Origin: a virus
Taxonomy: Duplodnaviria; Heunggongvirae; Uroviricota; Caudoviricetes
DNA: 28,075 nt
Reading direction: 5' to 3' (one strand)
Virus record (IMG/VR): IMGVR_UViG_2585427787_000005
Position numbers and translations under genes: made by a program. The notes beneath the pieces were generated by a model. It saw only the letters and a list, made by a program, of their open reading frames with translations, did no database searches and was not told where the DNA came from. Of the stretch, positions 16,012 to 23,414 are shown one piece after another (positions within the stretch are counted from its first letter, which is position 1; each line of letters begins with the position of its first letter).

Positions 16012-16373
16012 ACATCCCGGTTTCTTCCACCATCGCACCGGAAAAGCGACTATGAGGGTAACCCTGCGTCTGTCAGCACAGTAAAACCCGGTGTGCATCG
16101 TTTTTGATTATTCCCGCACACTCACGCAGAAGGAATTCCCCGTCGGGCTACGGTCATGGTTAATGCGGGAATACGGCGACGATACAGCGCAGCTAAAAGG
16201 GTAATAGACGGATAGACCGGTTTATTTCATTCCACAGGATTCTGAGTGTCCCCAACTTCCTCCAATAGTCTGAGCGTACACCTATATAGTTTTAATTTTC
16301 ATCAATCCATTTAACTATCGTTTAATTGTTGTCACATAGGATTCTGCCGTTTTTAACAATGCAGGATAATAAG

Positions 16374-16667
16374 ATGAAAAAAATGTTGTTTTCTGCCGCT
16401 CTGGCAATGCTTATTACAGGATGTGCTCAACAGACGTTTACTGTTGGAAACAAACCGACAGCAGTAACACCAAAGGAAACCATCACCCATCACTTCTTCG
16501 TTTCGGGAATTGGACAGGAGAAAACTGTTGATGCAGCCAAAATTTGTGGCGGCGCAGAAAATGTTGTTAAAACAGAAACCCAGCAAACATTCGTAAATGG
16601 ATTGCTCGGTTTTATTACTTTAGGCATTTATACTCCGCTGGAAGCGCGTGTGTATTGCTCACAATAA
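16374..16667 (+). CDS. bor: Bor lipoprotein (serum-resistance-associated outer-membrane lipoprotein)
   Basis: 97 aa from MKKMLFSAALAMLITGCAQQTFTV with lipobox LITGC, recalled lambda Bor. ATG at 16374; the longer ORF-track start is an upstream extension. Convergent with Rz as in lambda. Confidence 0.92.
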   Translation: MKKMLFSAALAMLITGCAQQTFTVGNKPTAVTPKETITHHFFVSGIGQEKTVDAAKICGGAENVVKTETQQTFVNGLLGFITLGIYTPLEARVYCSQ

Positions 16668-16698: not shown

Positions 16699-17160
16699 CT
16701 ATCTGCACTGCTCATTAATATACTTCTGGGTTCCTTCCAGTTGTTTTTGCATAGTGATCAGCCTCTCTCTGAGGGTGAAATAATCCTGTTCAGCGGTGTC
16801 TGCCAGTCGGGGGGAGGCTGCATTATCCACGCCGGAGGCGGTGGTGGCTTCACGCACTGACTGACAGACTGCTTTGATGTGCAACCGACGACGACCAGCG
16901 GCAACATCATCACGCAGAGCATCATTTTCAGCTTTCGCATCAGCTAACTCCTTCGTGTATTTTGCATCGAGCGCAGCAACATCACGCTGACGCATCTGCA
17001 TGTCAGTAATTGCCGCGTTCGCCAGCTTCAGTTCTTTGGCATTTTTGTCGCGCTGGGCTTTATAGGTAATGGCGTTATCACGGTAATGATTAACAGCCCA
17101 TGACAGGCAGACGATGATGCAGATAACCAGAGCGGAGATAATCGCGGTTACTCTGTTCAT
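16699..17160 (-). CDS. Rz: Inner-membrane spanin Rz
   Basis: 153 aa from [41 protein letters not shown], recalled lambda Rz. ATG at 17160 overlaps the R stop (ATGA). Confidence 0.92.
16758..16940 (-). CDS. Rz1: Outer-membrane lipoprotein spanin Rz1, embedded in the +1 frame of Rz
   Basis: 60-aa [27 protein letters not shown] with lipobox VVGC and a proline-rich tail [15 protein letters not shown], entirely inside Rz. Confidence 0.9.
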
Positions 17161-17654
17161 TGCTGACCCCACAAACAGATTTCACGCTCAATCTCACGAC
17201 GAGTCATGAGACCTTTCCATTGCTTACCGCCAGCATATGTCCAGCGACGTAACTGATCACATGCGCCTTTGATATCGCCCTGGTTTATTTTGCGAAGAAG
17301 CGTCGATGTTCTGAAATTGCCAGCACCCACGTTGTAAACGAATGAGTAAAGAGCGCCGCGCGTTGTTTCCGGTATATCGACTTCGATGTATGGGTTAATT
17401 TGTCTGGCGACAGTGGCAAGGTCTTTATTCAAGAGTGCTTTGCATTCTGCTTTGGTATACGTTTTACCGAGCATGATGTCTTTTCCTGTATGCCCGTGAC
17501 ATACGGTCCATACACCAACAATATCTTTGTATGGTATGTAGCTGACACCTTCCAGACCATCGTTACCACTTGGGCCAGTGATTAACACTGATGCTATAGC
17601 AATTGCTCCGCCACCAATAGCAGCAGCAACGGCTTTTCGTAATGATGGAGGCAT
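17157..17654 (-). CDS. R: SAR endolysin (phage-21-type, lysozyme-like), not the lambda R transglycosylase
   Basis: 165-aa [47 protein letters not shown]: a Gly/Ala-rich N-terminal signal-anchor-release helix followed by a lysozyme-like domain. Matches the recalled phage 21 R protein. Confidence 0.9.
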
Positions 17655-17869
17655 TATTCACCTCTCGCAGCCTTGCGCTTATCTTCTTTAATCTTGAAAT
17701 AAAGGTTTGTCAGGTACGTCAGCAGGCCAAATACCAGGCTACCCAGCACACCTATTGCTGCCCACTGTGAGGGCGTGACTTTATCGAGCAGCTGTAAAAA
17801 CCAGTAACCGGCACTACCTGCTGAGGTGCCATAGGCGACACCCGTTGTTAACTTATCCATGGATTTCAT
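17654..17869 (-). CDS. S: Pinholin S (phage-21-type, with MKSM dual-start motif)
   Basis: 71 aa from [74 protein letters not shown] at 17869, second Met at codon 4. Stop overlaps the R start. Confidence 0.9.
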
Positions 17870-18458
17870 AACCCCACCTCGCAGACAAAGCGGGTGTAAA
17901 TTGAGGGAATACAACGTATCGCAAAAAAGCAGAAACGTAACAGACTCGGAGTCAGTGAATAACTCAGGTATTGAGTTATCAGCTAATATCGAGACTCAAA
18001 AAATGGAAAAACCAGCTCGACGGCGGGTTTAAGCTGTGTGACGAAGTAACCACTCTTAACAGCATAACCAATTTTTTACGTACGTAAACCACTGAATGAT
18101 ATTTATGAGAATGCTACCGAGTGTTCAAAACACCACCACAAATACATAAGAAAACCTCAACAAATAACCAATAAATAATTTCCGGCGTTATTTTTAGTTA
18201 ATTTAAATTAAACCATCGAATTATAGATCCCCCCATAAATAACAGGCATTAATATAAATTAGCTAATAGGTTTATTTTTGTTCAAATAAGAGCCATAAAT
18301 AGGTTTCGATAGAAAAAGTTCAGATAAAAATAGAGATCTACTTCACAAATTAAATGAGAAACTAAAACTTACATCTTGAAATAATCACATTGATTAGATG
18401 AATATTTATCGCGCAGTGACATCATTTTTTAATAATAGTTCAAAAAAAAGGGCTCACG

Positions 18459-19541
18459 ATGAAAAAATTAACAGTGGCAATTTCTGCTGTAGCTGCATCA
18501 GTACTGATGGCGATGTCTGCTCAGGCAGCTGAAATTTATAATAAAGACAGTAACAAGCTGGATCTGTACGGGAAAGTTAATGCTAAGCACTACTTCTCCT
18601 CTAATGATGCAGATGATGGTGATACTACTTATGCCCGTCTTGGCTTCAAAGGTGAAACCCAAATCAACGATCAACTGACTGGTTTCGGTCAGTGGGAATA
18701 TGAATTCAAAGGCAACCGCGCTGAATCTCAAGGTTCCTCCAAAGATAAAACCCGTCTTGCCTTCGCTGGCCTGAAATTCGGTGACTACGGCTCCATCGAT
18801 TACGGCCGTAACTACGGTGTAGCATACGACATCGGTGCGTGGACTGACGTCCTGCCAGAATTCGGTGGTGACACTTGGACTCAAACAGATGTGTTCATGA
18901 CTGGTCGCACCACTGGTGTTGCAACTTATCGTAACAACGACTTCTTTGGTCTGGTTGATGGTCTGAACTTTGCTGCTCAGTATCAGGGTAAAAATGACCG
19001 CACTGACGTAACTGAAGCTAATGGTGATGGTTTCGGTTTCTCCACTACTTATGAGTATGAAGGATTCGGTGTAGGTGCAACCTATGCTAAATCTGATCGC
19101 ACTAATAATCAGGTTATCTACGGTAACAACGGTCTGAATGCTTCTGGTCAAAATGCTGAAGTATGGGCAGCTGGTCTGAAATATGATGCGAACAACATCT
19201 ATCTGGCCACCACCTATTCTGAAACCCAGAACATGACTGTTTTTGGTAATAACCATATTGCCAACAAAGCACAAAACTTCGAAGCTGTTGCACAATATCA
19301 GTTCGACTTCGGCCTGCGTCCATCCGTTGCTTACCTGCATTCTAAAGGAAAAGACTTGGGTGTTTGGGGTGATCAGGACCTGGTTGAATATGTTGATGTA
19401 GGTGCAACCTATTACTTCAACAAAAATATGTCCACTTTTGTTGACTACAAAATCAACCTGATTGATAAGAGCGATTTCACGAAAGCATCTGGCGTTGCTA
19501 CCGATGATATCGTTGCTGTAGGTATGGTTTACCAGTTCTAA
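18459..19541 (+). CDS. nmpC: Outer-membrane porin of the OmpC/NmpC/Lc family (lysogenic-conversion moron between Q and S)
   Basis: 360-aa ORF with signal peptide [23 protein letters not shown] followed by [16 protein letters not shown] and C-terminal ...VAVGMVYQF, the classic porin terminal Phe. Opposite strand to the late genes, in the position of DLP12 nmpC / PA-2 lc. Confidence 0.93.
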
Positions 19542-19552
19542 TTTGATTACTA

Positions 19553-19587
19553 AAAGATATGTTGTGGGAGGCTTTGCCTCCCCAACA
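19553..19587 (-). terminator. Candidate tR'-like terminator of the short late leader transcript
   Basis: Minus strand reads TGTTGGGGAGGC-aaa-GCCTCCCACAACA followed by TATCTTTT, about 150-180 nt downstream of the Q stop. The expected spacing is recalled from lambda biology. Confidence 0.4.
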
Positions 19588-19702
19588 TATAAGTGGCTCC
19601 CTCAAGCCACTTCCTTTAGAAGCACAACCTTGCTTCTAACTATACAAACCTTCTGTTATATATTACCCTTTATTTTTGGGGGCGTTTCAACGCCCCATTT
19701 TT
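19561..19702 (+). ncRNA. Candidate structured small RNA immediately 3' of the porin gene (four tandem hairpins; IpeX-like by position)
   Basis: Hairpins read from sequence: GGGAGGC-ttt-GCCTCCC (19566..19582), GTGGCT-ccctca-AGCCAC (19593..19610), GAAGCA-caacct-TGCTTC (19619..19636), GGGGCG-tttcaa-CGCCCC plus T tract (19679..19702). The IpeX assignment is from recalled DLP12 literature, not from alignment. Confidence 0.4.
19679..19702 (+). terminator. Rho-independent terminator downstream of the porin gene
   Basis: GC-rich 6-bp stem GGGGCG/CGCCCC with 6-nt loop, followed by ATTTTT. Confidence 0.65.
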
Positions 19703-19729
19703 AATAACTTTTAGTAAATAATTGGCGTA

Positions 19730-20113
19730 TTAATTAGAGTTATTAACAACGATATCCATCTCTAACCGGATATCTAATGCCATTAACATCCCTTCAATTA
19801 TGCCCTCAGCCTTCTGTAACCTTTTCCCGATATAACCATCAGAGCAGCAATGCTTACCTGCCAGTGACATGAATGTCATACCGACTACATAATAATCTAC
19901 TAATAAATCGTGCAAATCGCTGTTGTTCTTTTTCAGACGGGCCATGCACCCGCAAATGATCATCGCGTCATCGTCACAACATTGCGGGCGAGATTTTACT
20001 TTTGAAGGAATTAATCCCTTAAAACCGGCGGCAATGGACGACCAGGTCACATCTTCATGATTATTAGCCGCCCACGCTCCCCAACGCTCAAGAACCATCT
20101 GAATATCACGCAT
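19730..20113 (-). CDS. Q: Late-gene antiterminator Q (QuuD-like)
   Basis: 127 aa from [33 protein letters not shown] with Cys-rich putative zinc-binding segment [17 protein letters not shown] at 20113; the ORF-track call is longer. Confidence 0.85.
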
Positions 20114-22542: not shown

Positions 22543-23151
22543 TTATTGCAACAGATTCTGACGGAAATATGGTAACACACGACTCCACTTATCATCCTGC
22601 CACGGTTGGAATTTTACATGCGCCGTTTCTCTGGCAAGGATTTCTCGCGCCCTGTTGAGTATCCGAGGATATTCTTGTTCGATTGAAGTGAATCTACCTG
22701 CTTCGCGATGCTCTGCGACCTGAAGAAGGGGCGTAACGTTCTGGCAGGCGGTTAACATCGTATCACTTGCTCGCCATAACCAGGCGAGTGTGCAAAGTTC
22801 GTTATCAGTGAATTGTTTTGTGATTGGGGATTGTTGAACTTCTCGATCGAGAATATCCAGAACCCAGCGGCGGAATTCTTTGGCCACAGGAGTACGAGCA
22901 AACATGGCGATCAAATGGGCTCCGCGAAGGCTAAATACTCGAGACTCCTGCATTCCACGAGGGGTGGTCACTTTGACCACCCTTGTCATCATATCTGTGA
23001 ATTCATCTGAGTGCCGAGAGTAAATGCGCTGAACTGCTTTATCGTCCGCATATTCCAGTGCTAAACCAACTTCAGTGGCAGTAAGCCAAATTCTGTTATT
23101 GTGGCAAATCGGGGTAAACGTCGTTTTGTGGAATGCTAATTGAGTAGTCAT
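22543..23151 (-). CDS. Bro-N-like domain protein (antirepressor / Roi-like family candidate)
   Basis: 202-aa ORF MTTQLAFHKTTFTPICHNNRIWLTATEVGLALEYADDKAVQRIYSRHSDEF...RVFSLRGAHLIAMFARTPVAKEFRRWVLDIL. Matches the recalled Bro-N consensus pattern (W-x-x-A-x-[DE]-V-x-x-x-L, then S-E-x-G-[LV]-Y-x-L-I, then A-x-x-F-x-x-W-V). Family assignment is by eye. Confidence 0.65.
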   Translation of the reverse strand: MTTQLAFHKTTFTPICHNNRIWLTATEVGLALEYADDKAVQRIYSRHSDEFTDMMTRVVKVTTPRGMQESRVFSLRGAHLIAMFARTPVAKEFRRWVLDILDREVQQSPITKQFTDNELCTLAWLWRASDTMLTACQNVTPLLQVAEHREAGRFTSIEQEYPRILNRAREILARETAHVKFQPWQDDKWSRVLPYFRQNLLQ

Positions 23152-23414
23152 AGTATCACCTCATCAGGTTAACCATCACCACCAACGACGCCAATCGACT
23201 GGTGGTGAACTGTGTAAGGTTGGCGTAACCGGCTACTCAAACCCGGCGCTTCCGAAGAAGCCCTCACACAGCCCACCATAATTTGGGCATAGCCGTGCTT
23301 AGCGCACAAAAAAACCGCTTAACGCGGTATGCGTTGAGTAGTATCCCGGGACGCCAATCCCGTGTGCCGATTTTGCGGCAACGCACAGAATATAGCGCCG
23401 GATAAATCATGTCG

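Follow-up and report, generated by a model that had tools for sequence, protein, structure and literature searches.

The 3' untranslated region of a prophage porin gene corresponds to IpeX and is complementary to the leader of ompC mRNA

The 28,075-nucleotide (nt) stretch of viral DNA analyzed here, hereafter the window (IMG/VR record IMGVR_UViG_2585427787_000005, Caudoviricetes), carries a porin gene of the NmpC/Lc family, the 3' untranslated region (UTR) of which is the counterpart of IpeX, a small RNA (sRNA) of the Escherichia coli prophage DLP12. The part of this RNA that is predicted to stay unpaired is complementary to the leader of ompC mRNA, over the site of the sRNA MicC and the Shine-Dalgarno sequence, and a diverged homologue of the same UTR in phage P7 matches the MicF site of ompF. 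On these grounds, we tentatively propose, giving the proposal somewhat less than an even chance, that IpeX is a classical base-pairing antisense RNA and that the 3' UTRs of phage porin genes carry an inverted, leader-like stretch directed against a host porin mRNA, the lambdoid version against the MicC site and Shine-Dalgarno sequence of ompC and the P7/P1-like version against the MicF site of ompF, with a constitutive leader transcript from the late promoter pR' running antisense to lambdoid IpeX. The overall explanation, in which the window contains the late-region porin module of a DLP12/PA-2-type lambdoid prophage with its porin intact, is held with good confidence when taken as a whole, that is, together with the IpeX identity, the pairing, and the minus-strand model described below.

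RESULTS

The porin 3' UTR is the counterpart of IpeX

According to reviews, IpeX is a 167-nt RNA of DLP12 that is transcribed from the phage porin promoter, within the porin mRNA, and is processed afterwards; it lowers OmpC and OmpF and is present in phage PA-2 as well. In the window, the spacer that follows the porin gene (19542 to 19735) shows 95.3% identity over 192 of 194 nt both to the nmpC-quuD spacer of DLP12 in E. coli K-12 and to the region downstream of lc in PA-2. The counterpart of IpeX is delimited as the plus-strand segment 19542 to 19707, which begins directly behind the porin stop codon and runs through the terminator T-tract; with these putative ends, it is 166 nt long, compared with the 167 nt that reviews give for IpeX, and the K-12 spacer is likewise one base longer than that of the window. 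The initial annotation had named this structured region a candidate counterpart of ipeX, and the alignment, with ~95% identity to the spacer in which ipeX resides, demonstrates the identity of the locus.

Annotation of this RNA was sought in several resources. No Rfam family was found over the spacer at the gathering threshold or at E values up to 10, and there was no matching IpeX model. In the RefSeq record of K-12 MG1655 (NC_000913.3), ipeX is not among the features annotated in 574340 to 574528, whereas micF and micC are annotated in their respective stretches. The supplementary tables of Adams 2021 contain no ipeX, quuD, or nmpC entry.

The spacer was detected in 2,511 of 5,426 complete E. 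coli genomes and in 36 sequenced phages, and at least 80% of the segment 18100 to 19800 was present in 2,470 of these genomes. Across species-representative genomes, a 19-mer of the spacer had real matches only in E. coli; five contigs of metagenome-assembled genomes that contained the 19-mer were discarded as chance matches with unrelated flanks. A search for related loci with the porin returned only porins that were at least 99% identical. There is nothing unusual about the arrangement: it has been known from DLP12 and PA-2 for decades, and intact copies are common, as the 2,470 genomes attest. The porin and IpeX locus is, in itself, already known and ubiquitous, and nothing about its presence is new.

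Two further observations concern the integrity and mobility of the module. Insertion sequences strike it repeatedly: IS5 is found in the IpeX spacer of E. coli JB2 (1375 to 2549 of the retrieved segment), and IS3, IS5, and IS1 are found inside the porin gene of other strains; the porin genes of K-12 and phage 434B are likewise interrupted by IS5. IdasGreatGrand, Lambda_ev087, 2E9, and 4B5 share Q, at ~90% identity, only up to position 19754, ~8 codons before the Q stop codon, and have neither the spacer nor the porin; judging from these sequences, the porin, the spacer, and the end of Q seem to be transferred together as a unit.

Four hairpins and two convergent terminators follow the porin gene

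Downstream of the porin stop codon (19539 to 19541), four consecutive hairpins lie within 140 nt of each other (19557 to 19696), as initially annotated. Hairpin 1 (19557 to 19590) has 15 bp with one bulge and a folding energy of -22.2 kcal/mol on either strand; on the minus strand, the stem is followed by the tail CTTTTAGT, with CTTTT extending to 19552. Hairpin 2 (19591 to 19612, plus strand) has 8 bp, a 6-nt loop, and an energy of -10.4 kcal/mol, and hairpin 3 (19616 to 19639, plus strand) has 9 bp, a 6-nt loop, and an energy of -10.0 kcal/mol. Hairpin 4 with its ATTTTT tract (19679 to 19702, stem 19679 to 19696; -13.9 kcal/mol) is the intrinsic terminator of the porin/IpeX transcript and the sole terminator called by the scan in the spacer, on the plus strand, just as had been read from the sequence at first. 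The 174-nt segment that contains the hairpins is far more stable than dinucleotide shuffles on either strand (z = -8.1), with none of 200 shuffles folding as stably.

The further suggestion that this region forms a bidirectional terminator was not borne out. None of the four hairpins is terminator-like on both strands. Hairpin 4 is preceded by TTTATTTTT, which becomes the tail AAAATAAAGG on the minus strand, and it is terminator-like on the plus strand only; hairpin 1, the plus-strand tail of which is AAGTGGCT, is terminator-like on the minus strand only. The scan gives no terminator call for minus-strand hairpin 1, probably owing to the bulge. The arrangement is one of two convergent, unidirectional terminators ~140 nt apart.

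An unpaired stretch of IpeX is complementary to the ompC leader

The fold prediction leaves an open stretch of ~40 nt, with three hairpins on its 5' side and the terminator hairpin on its 3' side. Within it, a 31-nt segment between hairpins 3 and 4 (AAACCTTCTGTTATATATTACCCTTTATTTT; 19646 to 19676, plus strand), with a mean unpaired probability of 0.78, is the proposed antisense seed against ompC. The seed is organized in two plus-strand blocks, GTTATAT (19655 to 19661) and CCTTTATTT (19667 to 19675), and is predicted to form a 24-bp duplex of -26.4 kcal/mol with positions -31 to -7 of the K-12 ompC leader. This duplex consists of 15 bp, one of them G.U, over the Shine-Dalgarno sequence and of 9 bp farther upstream, with a 5-nt bulge of IpeX between the two. 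The target covers both the MicC site and the ribosome-binding site, and GTTATAT together with CCTTTATT in the IpeX stretch reproduces, in two blocks, 15 of the first 16 nt of MicC. IpeX is not a member of the MicC or MicF family, neither of which gave an Rfam match in 19400 to 19800 at E values up to 10.

A duplex as stable as -26.4 kcal/mol was reached by 3 of 1,500 dinucleotide-shuffled seeds, by 1 of 1,500 dinucleotide-shuffled ompC targets, by none of 1,842 80-nt segments of the same prophage, and by none of 20,000 distinct natural segments from other E. coli prophage contigs, the best of which reached -25.8 kcal/mol. This chance level is comparable to that of the positive controls, for which the corresponding counts with shuffled sRNA and shuffled target were 0 and 2 of 1,500 for MicC with ompC and 2 and 3 of 1,500 for MicF with ompF. 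The complementarity and its statistics are thereby demonstrated; that the two RNAs pair in vivo, we infer. Duplex prediction with whole RNAs was nondiscriminating even for MicF and ompF (z = -1.9), and for that reason the open stretch alone and full-length cofolding were used.

Cofolding of the full RNAs, which charges for the opening of their own structures, yielded free energy differences (ddG) of -21.0 kcal/mol for IpeX with ompC, -17.6 kcal/mol for IpeX with ompF, and -5.8 kcal/mol for IpeX with the leader of the phage porin itself. The controls gave -26.4 kcal/mol (MicC with ompC) and -21.5 kcal/mol (MicF with ompF). Of the 5,371 E. coli genomes that have the ompC leader, 5,365 show at least 99% identity in it, and with a sequence so nearly invariant, any host of the prophage offers the same target.

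A diverged homologue in P7 matches ompF

The P1-like phages P7, JL22, and phi456 also carry nmpC, with a porin that is ~82% identical to that of the window. In these phages, the gene adjoins ssb, with neither a Q gene nor a lysis cassette among its annotated surroundings. The nmpC 3' UTR of P7 (2017 to 2201 of the retrieved P7 segment; identical in JL22 and phi456) is a diverged homologue of the IpeX UTR and has the same layout, with four hairpins, an open stretch, and a terminator. Between the window and P7, two pairs of hairpin 2 have changed on both sides, from A-U to G-C and from U-A to A-U, and inspection of the folds shows further two-sided pair changes in hairpins 1 and 3. Hairpin 1 has a counterpart at the same place in the P7 UTR, with a different stem sequence and no adjoining Q gene. 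In a MAFFT alignment that included P7, the stems of hairpins 1 and 3 were misaligned, so that RNAalifold returned hairpins 2 and 4 alone; single-sequence folds were compared instead. By contrast with these two-sided changes, no double compensatory changes were found among the 47 distinct spacer variants of the lambdoid lineage, which are too similar to one another for covariation to show. The P7 version has no annotated Q gene beside it, and the four-hairpin architecture is therefore a property of the porin 3' UTR, as opposed to the late-promoter region.

The open stretch of P7 is predicted to pair with positions -14 to +9 of ompF, which is the MicF site, at -31.0 kcal/mol, an energy reached by none of 1,000 shuffled seeds and by 1 of 1,000 shuffled targets. 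Read backwards, the P7 open stretch resembles a porin leader with its start codon (...GGTAATAAATAACATGAAGTTAAA), which suggests that the seeds may have arisen from an inverted copy of the porin 5' end.

E. coli PSUO2 (1416 to 2692 of the retrieved segment) and AF22 (1416 to 2690) carry the porin and the whole IpeX spacer between yedK and ybcM/ybcL/emrE. The PSUO2 porin is 97.8% identical to that of the window, the annotation of AF22 gives its porin an identical protein accession, and neither strain has annotated Q or lysis genes in the vicinity. The locus looks like a prophage remnant kept for its porin module. Since the spacer is kept there without annotated Q or lysis genes, PSUO2 and AF22, too, point to an architecture that belongs to the porin UTR. 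The porin of the Salmonella "phage" entry SPF_0923 was considered as a comparable moron and rejected: its neighbors, annotated as a pyruvate-flavodoxin oxidoreductase and universal stress protein F, make it look chromosomal and are of the same kind as those of ompN in the K-12 chromosome (ydbK).

The minus strand holds a candidate late promoter and terminator

In lambdoid phages, pR', a sigma-dependent pause element, and the terminator tR' are located between Q and the late genes. The standard promoter scan found no promoter in 19540 to 19730. A relaxed scan returned as its best minus-strand candidate for pR' the segment 19660 to 19690, with TTGAAA (19690 to 19685) separated by a 19-nt spacer from TAATAT (19665 to 19660); its -35 hexamer sits in the loop of hairpin 4. 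The case for this candidate is one of position only: it is ~77 nt downstream of the Q stop codon, a distance similar to that in lambda. A -10-like TATAGT (19644 to 19639, minus strand), ~10 to 15 nt after the putative start, is a candidate sigma-dependent pause element.

Of the initial reading of hairpin 1 as a tR'-like minus-strand terminator, the physical part stands: a stem of -22.2 kcal/mol followed by a U-rich tail is present, and tR' is a plausible role for it. The assignment of tR' and pR' is, however, a sequence-based guess. In K-12, transcripts that come from the quuD side do not extend as far as the IS5 element in nmpC, for which one or more intrinsic terminators have been invoked (PMC11677980). 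If pR' and tR' are placed correctly, a leader of ~100 nt would start at pR' and run antisense to the greater part of IpeX; constitutive activity of pR' in lysogens has been reported.

Base pairing and its alternatives

Several points weigh against the overall explanation. One review contrasts IpeX with MicF and MicC and denies that it base-pairs with ompC or ompF mRNA, and another states that it does not act by complementarity alone. The match to ompF amounts to a 10-bp anti-Shine-Dalgarno core, TATTACCCTT against GAGGGTAATA, and this pairing is not significant compared with shuffles (183 of 1,500 and 73 of 1,500). Variation in the ompC seed is only slightly lower than elsewhere in the UTR (2 of 31 nt variable, versus 24 of 144 nt), and the seed overlaps the -10 hexamer and start site of the pR' candidate, which provides a second possible cause of its conservation. 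As for the pR' candidate, its 19-nt spacer is unusual and it fails the standard scan. Among the 47 spacer variants, one-sided stem changes that keep a wobble pair favor the plus strand at 6 sites and the minus strand at 3, a lean that is not significant; the commonest variant, A19620G in hairpin 3 (11 of the 47), keeps a G.U pair on the plus strand only. Finally, Castillo-Keller et al., in J Bacteriol in 2006, reportedly found no complementarity for IpeX, and the effect on ompC that they described is said to be independent of Hfq.

The strongest competitor is that IpeX represses OmpC and OmpF by some means other than base pairing, such as the titration of a protein, and that the complementarity is incidental. 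We consider this unlikely, even with the denials of pairing, or of complementarity alone, in the two reviews on its side; a third review lists IpeX among the base-pairing, Hfq-using sRNAs. The complementarity concerns a target that was named in advance and is no more likely to arise by chance than those of MicC and MicF; both the MicC site and the Shine-Dalgarno sequence fall within it; the matching part lies where the RNA is unpaired; no such match exists toward the leader of the porin itself; and the diverged P7 homologue has a strong match of its own to the MicF site of ompF. The reported Hfq independence of the effect on ompC would fit action without pairing, but a 24-bp duplex is plausible without Hfq. 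A 24-bp duplex that works without Hfq and a 10-bp one that would need it plausibly fit the reported difference between ompC and ompF. A full-text search for IpeX, MicC, and complementarity, the scope of which excluded subscription literature and the 2006 original, retrieved no report of the match. What these results argue for beyond the known locus is a testable base-pairing model for IpeX that is supported by two independent phage lineages.

The hairpin array could also be mainly a leader of the late operon, with the minus strand yielding a short pR'-tR' transcript like lambda 6S RNA or StxS and any activity of the plus-strand RNA being secondary. The location is the expected one, directly downstream of the Q gene, where lambdoid phages have pR' and tR'; on the minus strand, the stem of hairpin 1 is strong and its tail rich in U, the fold is as stable as that of the plus strand, and three stem substitutions fit this strand only. 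Yet the P7-type nmpC UTR keeps the four hairpins and the open stretch with no Q gene beside them, and the PSUO2 and AF22 remnants retain the porin and the full spacer with no annotated Q or lysis genes nearby. The wobble-keeping changes lean to the plus strand, and no promoter passes the standard scan. We regard a primarily late-leader function as rather improbable, a little more so than regulation without pairing, and it does not exclude the plus-strand IpeX reading, since the two are not mutually exclusive.

Tandem 3' hairpins are a common stabilizer of mRNA. That these hairpins do no more than stabilize the 3' end of the porin mRNA, as an exonuclease block of the repetitive extragenic palindrome (REP) type without regulation, is very improbable: a REP survey does count ipeX among the sRNAs with REP-like palindromes, but the published multicopy and lysogen data, according to reviews, assign to IpeX an effect in trans on OmpC and OmpF, and the conserved open stretch and its target match would be left unexplained.

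The porin gene is intact and has a conserved upstream region

The porin gene (18459 to 19541, plus strand) is an open reading frame (ORF) of 360 uninterrupted codons without a frameshift, and its product covers the Porin_1 domain of Pfam from end to end (1 to 337 of 337, E = 3e-152). The closest solved structures are OmpK37, OmpC, and PhoE. The protein is identical at 331 of 365 positions (90.7%) both to K-12 NmpC, with IS5 removed, and to Lc of PA-2, with the differences concentrated in a few short stretches. The 23-amino-acid signal peptide (encoded by 18459 to 18527; boundary taken from the PA-2 annotation) and the C-terminal ...VYQF are the same as in NmpC and Lc. The description of this gene as an intact NmpC/Lc-family porin with a signal peptide is confirmed by these comparisons, as is the contrast with K-12, where nmpC is split by IS5 and the copy in the window is unbroken.

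The region upstream of the porin is conserved, with a mean column identity of 96% across the window, PA-2, and K-12. In the PA-2 record of 1986 (J02580), CRP sites are annotated at 1067 to 1087 and 1363 to 1383, and these were transferred through the window/PA-2/K-12 alignment. The predicted counterparts are ATAGAGATCTACTTCACAAAT on the minus strand (18330 to 18350) and a second site at 18034 to 18054. A candidate porin promoter, with hexamers TTGAAA and GAATAT separated by 18 nt, was picked out from the sequence at 18376 to 18405 on the plus strand; the standard promoter scan makes no call for these hexamers. In K-12, transcription of nmpC is driven by the sigma-70 promoter PnmpC, located no more than 199 bp upstream of the start codon (PMC11677980), and the PnmpC region is conserved in the window.

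The porin lies antisense within a lambdoid late cassette

The gene content of the region is that of a lambdoid late cassette, with Q followed by S, R, and Rz on the minus strand. Q (19730 to 20113) is a QuuD-type antiterminator of 127 amino acids (PF06530, E = 8.5e-54), annotated as quuD in RefSeq, and is a distant relative of the Q21 protein of solved structure (E = 7.6e-8, residues 8 to 87). The lysis block (16699 to 17869) comprises an S21-type holin (17654 to 17869, Phage_holin_2_1), an endolysin (17157 to 17654, Phage_lysozyme), and Rz (16699 to 17172, Phage_lysis). The porin gene sits between Q and S on the opposite strand and is, as initially annotated, a moron antisense to the late operon. 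Because of this gene order, the late transcript reaches the lysis block only past the antisense porin: it must cross ~1.8 kb, including 1,083 nt antisense to the porin, before S.

Several other features were noted in the window. On the minus strand, a 280-amino-acid ORF (18498 to 19340) runs antisense to the porin with its codons in register; stop codons in it would require TTA, CTA, or TCA in the sense strand, and we think that it is an artifact of codon usage and not a gene. The PA-2 and 434B records carry similar annotated antisense ORFs. Beside the late genes, a plus-strand ORF (16326 to 16667) encodes a small protein with a lipoprotein-signal-like N terminus (MKKMLFSAALAMLITGC...) and occupies the position of borD in K-12 DLP12. 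Rfam matches were obtained for a C4 antisense RNA (23198 to 23283, minus strand, 74.8 bits) and, adjoining it, the Hfq-binding RNA isrK (23308 to 23380, minus strand, 58.7 bits); the pair lies upstream, on the same strand, of a 202-amino-acid ORF (22543 to 23151).

DISCUSSION

Taken together, the observations can be arranged into a model in which both strands of the spacer are used. On the plus strand, the porin promoter, probably assisted by CRP, would give rise to the mRNA of an NmpC/Lc-type porin, the 166-nt 3' UTR of which would be IpeX, with three hairpins, an open stretch of ~40 nt, and a terminator hairpin with a U tail. IpeX would be released from the porin transcript by processing and lower OmpC and OmpF, as described in the reviews. 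The open stretch is predicted to pair with positions -31 to -7 of ompC, over the MicC site and the Shine-Dalgarno sequence, and in this way to block ribosome binding; the 10-bp anti-Shine-Dalgarno core would pair more weakly with ompF. The result would be a lysogen that swaps the porins of the host for that of the phage. On the minus strand, the same 190 bp would have to hold the Q-dependent promoter, with its -35 hexamer in the loop of hairpin 4, and the terminator tR', which is probably formed by hairpin 1 and the U-rich tail behind it. Polymerase modified by Q would then transcribe ~1.8 kb, 1,083 nt of it antisense to the porin, to reach S, R, and Rz. Within this model, the processing of IpeX and the positions of pR' and tR' are what we infer.

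The locus is the textbook lysogenic-conversion porin (Lc/NmpC) with the IpeX RNA, and its presence here is unsurprising. For about twenty years, IpeX has been regarded as an odd repressor of OmpC and OmpF without recognized pairing. If the 24-bp match to ompC is functional, IpeX would be an ordinary antisense regulator that mimics MicC, a reading that the match between P7 and ompF supports. It would also be an early example of an sRNA derived from a 3' UTR, and phage porin genes would be self-contained cassettes for the replacement of host porins, with a bearing on phage exclusion and on outer-membrane permeability, antibiotic entry included, in the carriers of the element, which make up about half of E. 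coli strains.

The closest known systems are the nmpC-IpeX region of DLP12 and lc of PA-2. As in the window, the RNA is encoded on the same strand, directly after the porin stop codon, ends at the same terminator, and is flanked by the same Q gene (quuD) and S21-type lysis genes. The differences are the IS5 element that splits nmpC in K-12, as opposed to the intact porin of the window; porins that share 90.7% of their residues with the one described here; and a spacer with a few differences, which are located in bulges, loops, and flanks. The nmpC region of P7, JL22, and phi456 is more remote: its open stretch is longer than that of the window and has its best match in ompF instead of ompC, its context is ssb, and its stem sequences differ. 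Lambda 6S RNA and StxS of Stx phages resemble the minus strand of the window in that a short structured region, closed by a terminator (a putative one in the window), separates Q from the late genes. In the window, however, this region overlaps the convergent 3' UTR of a porin on the other strand, so that the pR' leader, with its predicted promoter and ends, would be antisense to IpeX.

The comparison with MicC and MicF bears most directly on the proposed function. The part of the ompC leader to which the open stretch of IpeX is complementary is also the binding site of MicC, and IpeX, like MicC and MicF, ends in a terminator hairpin with a U tail. MicC and MicF are separate genes without overall homology to IpeX, whereas IpeX is the 3' UTR of an mRNA, with pairing that is predicted; and the seed of MicC is located at its 5' end, whereas that of IpeX is internal.

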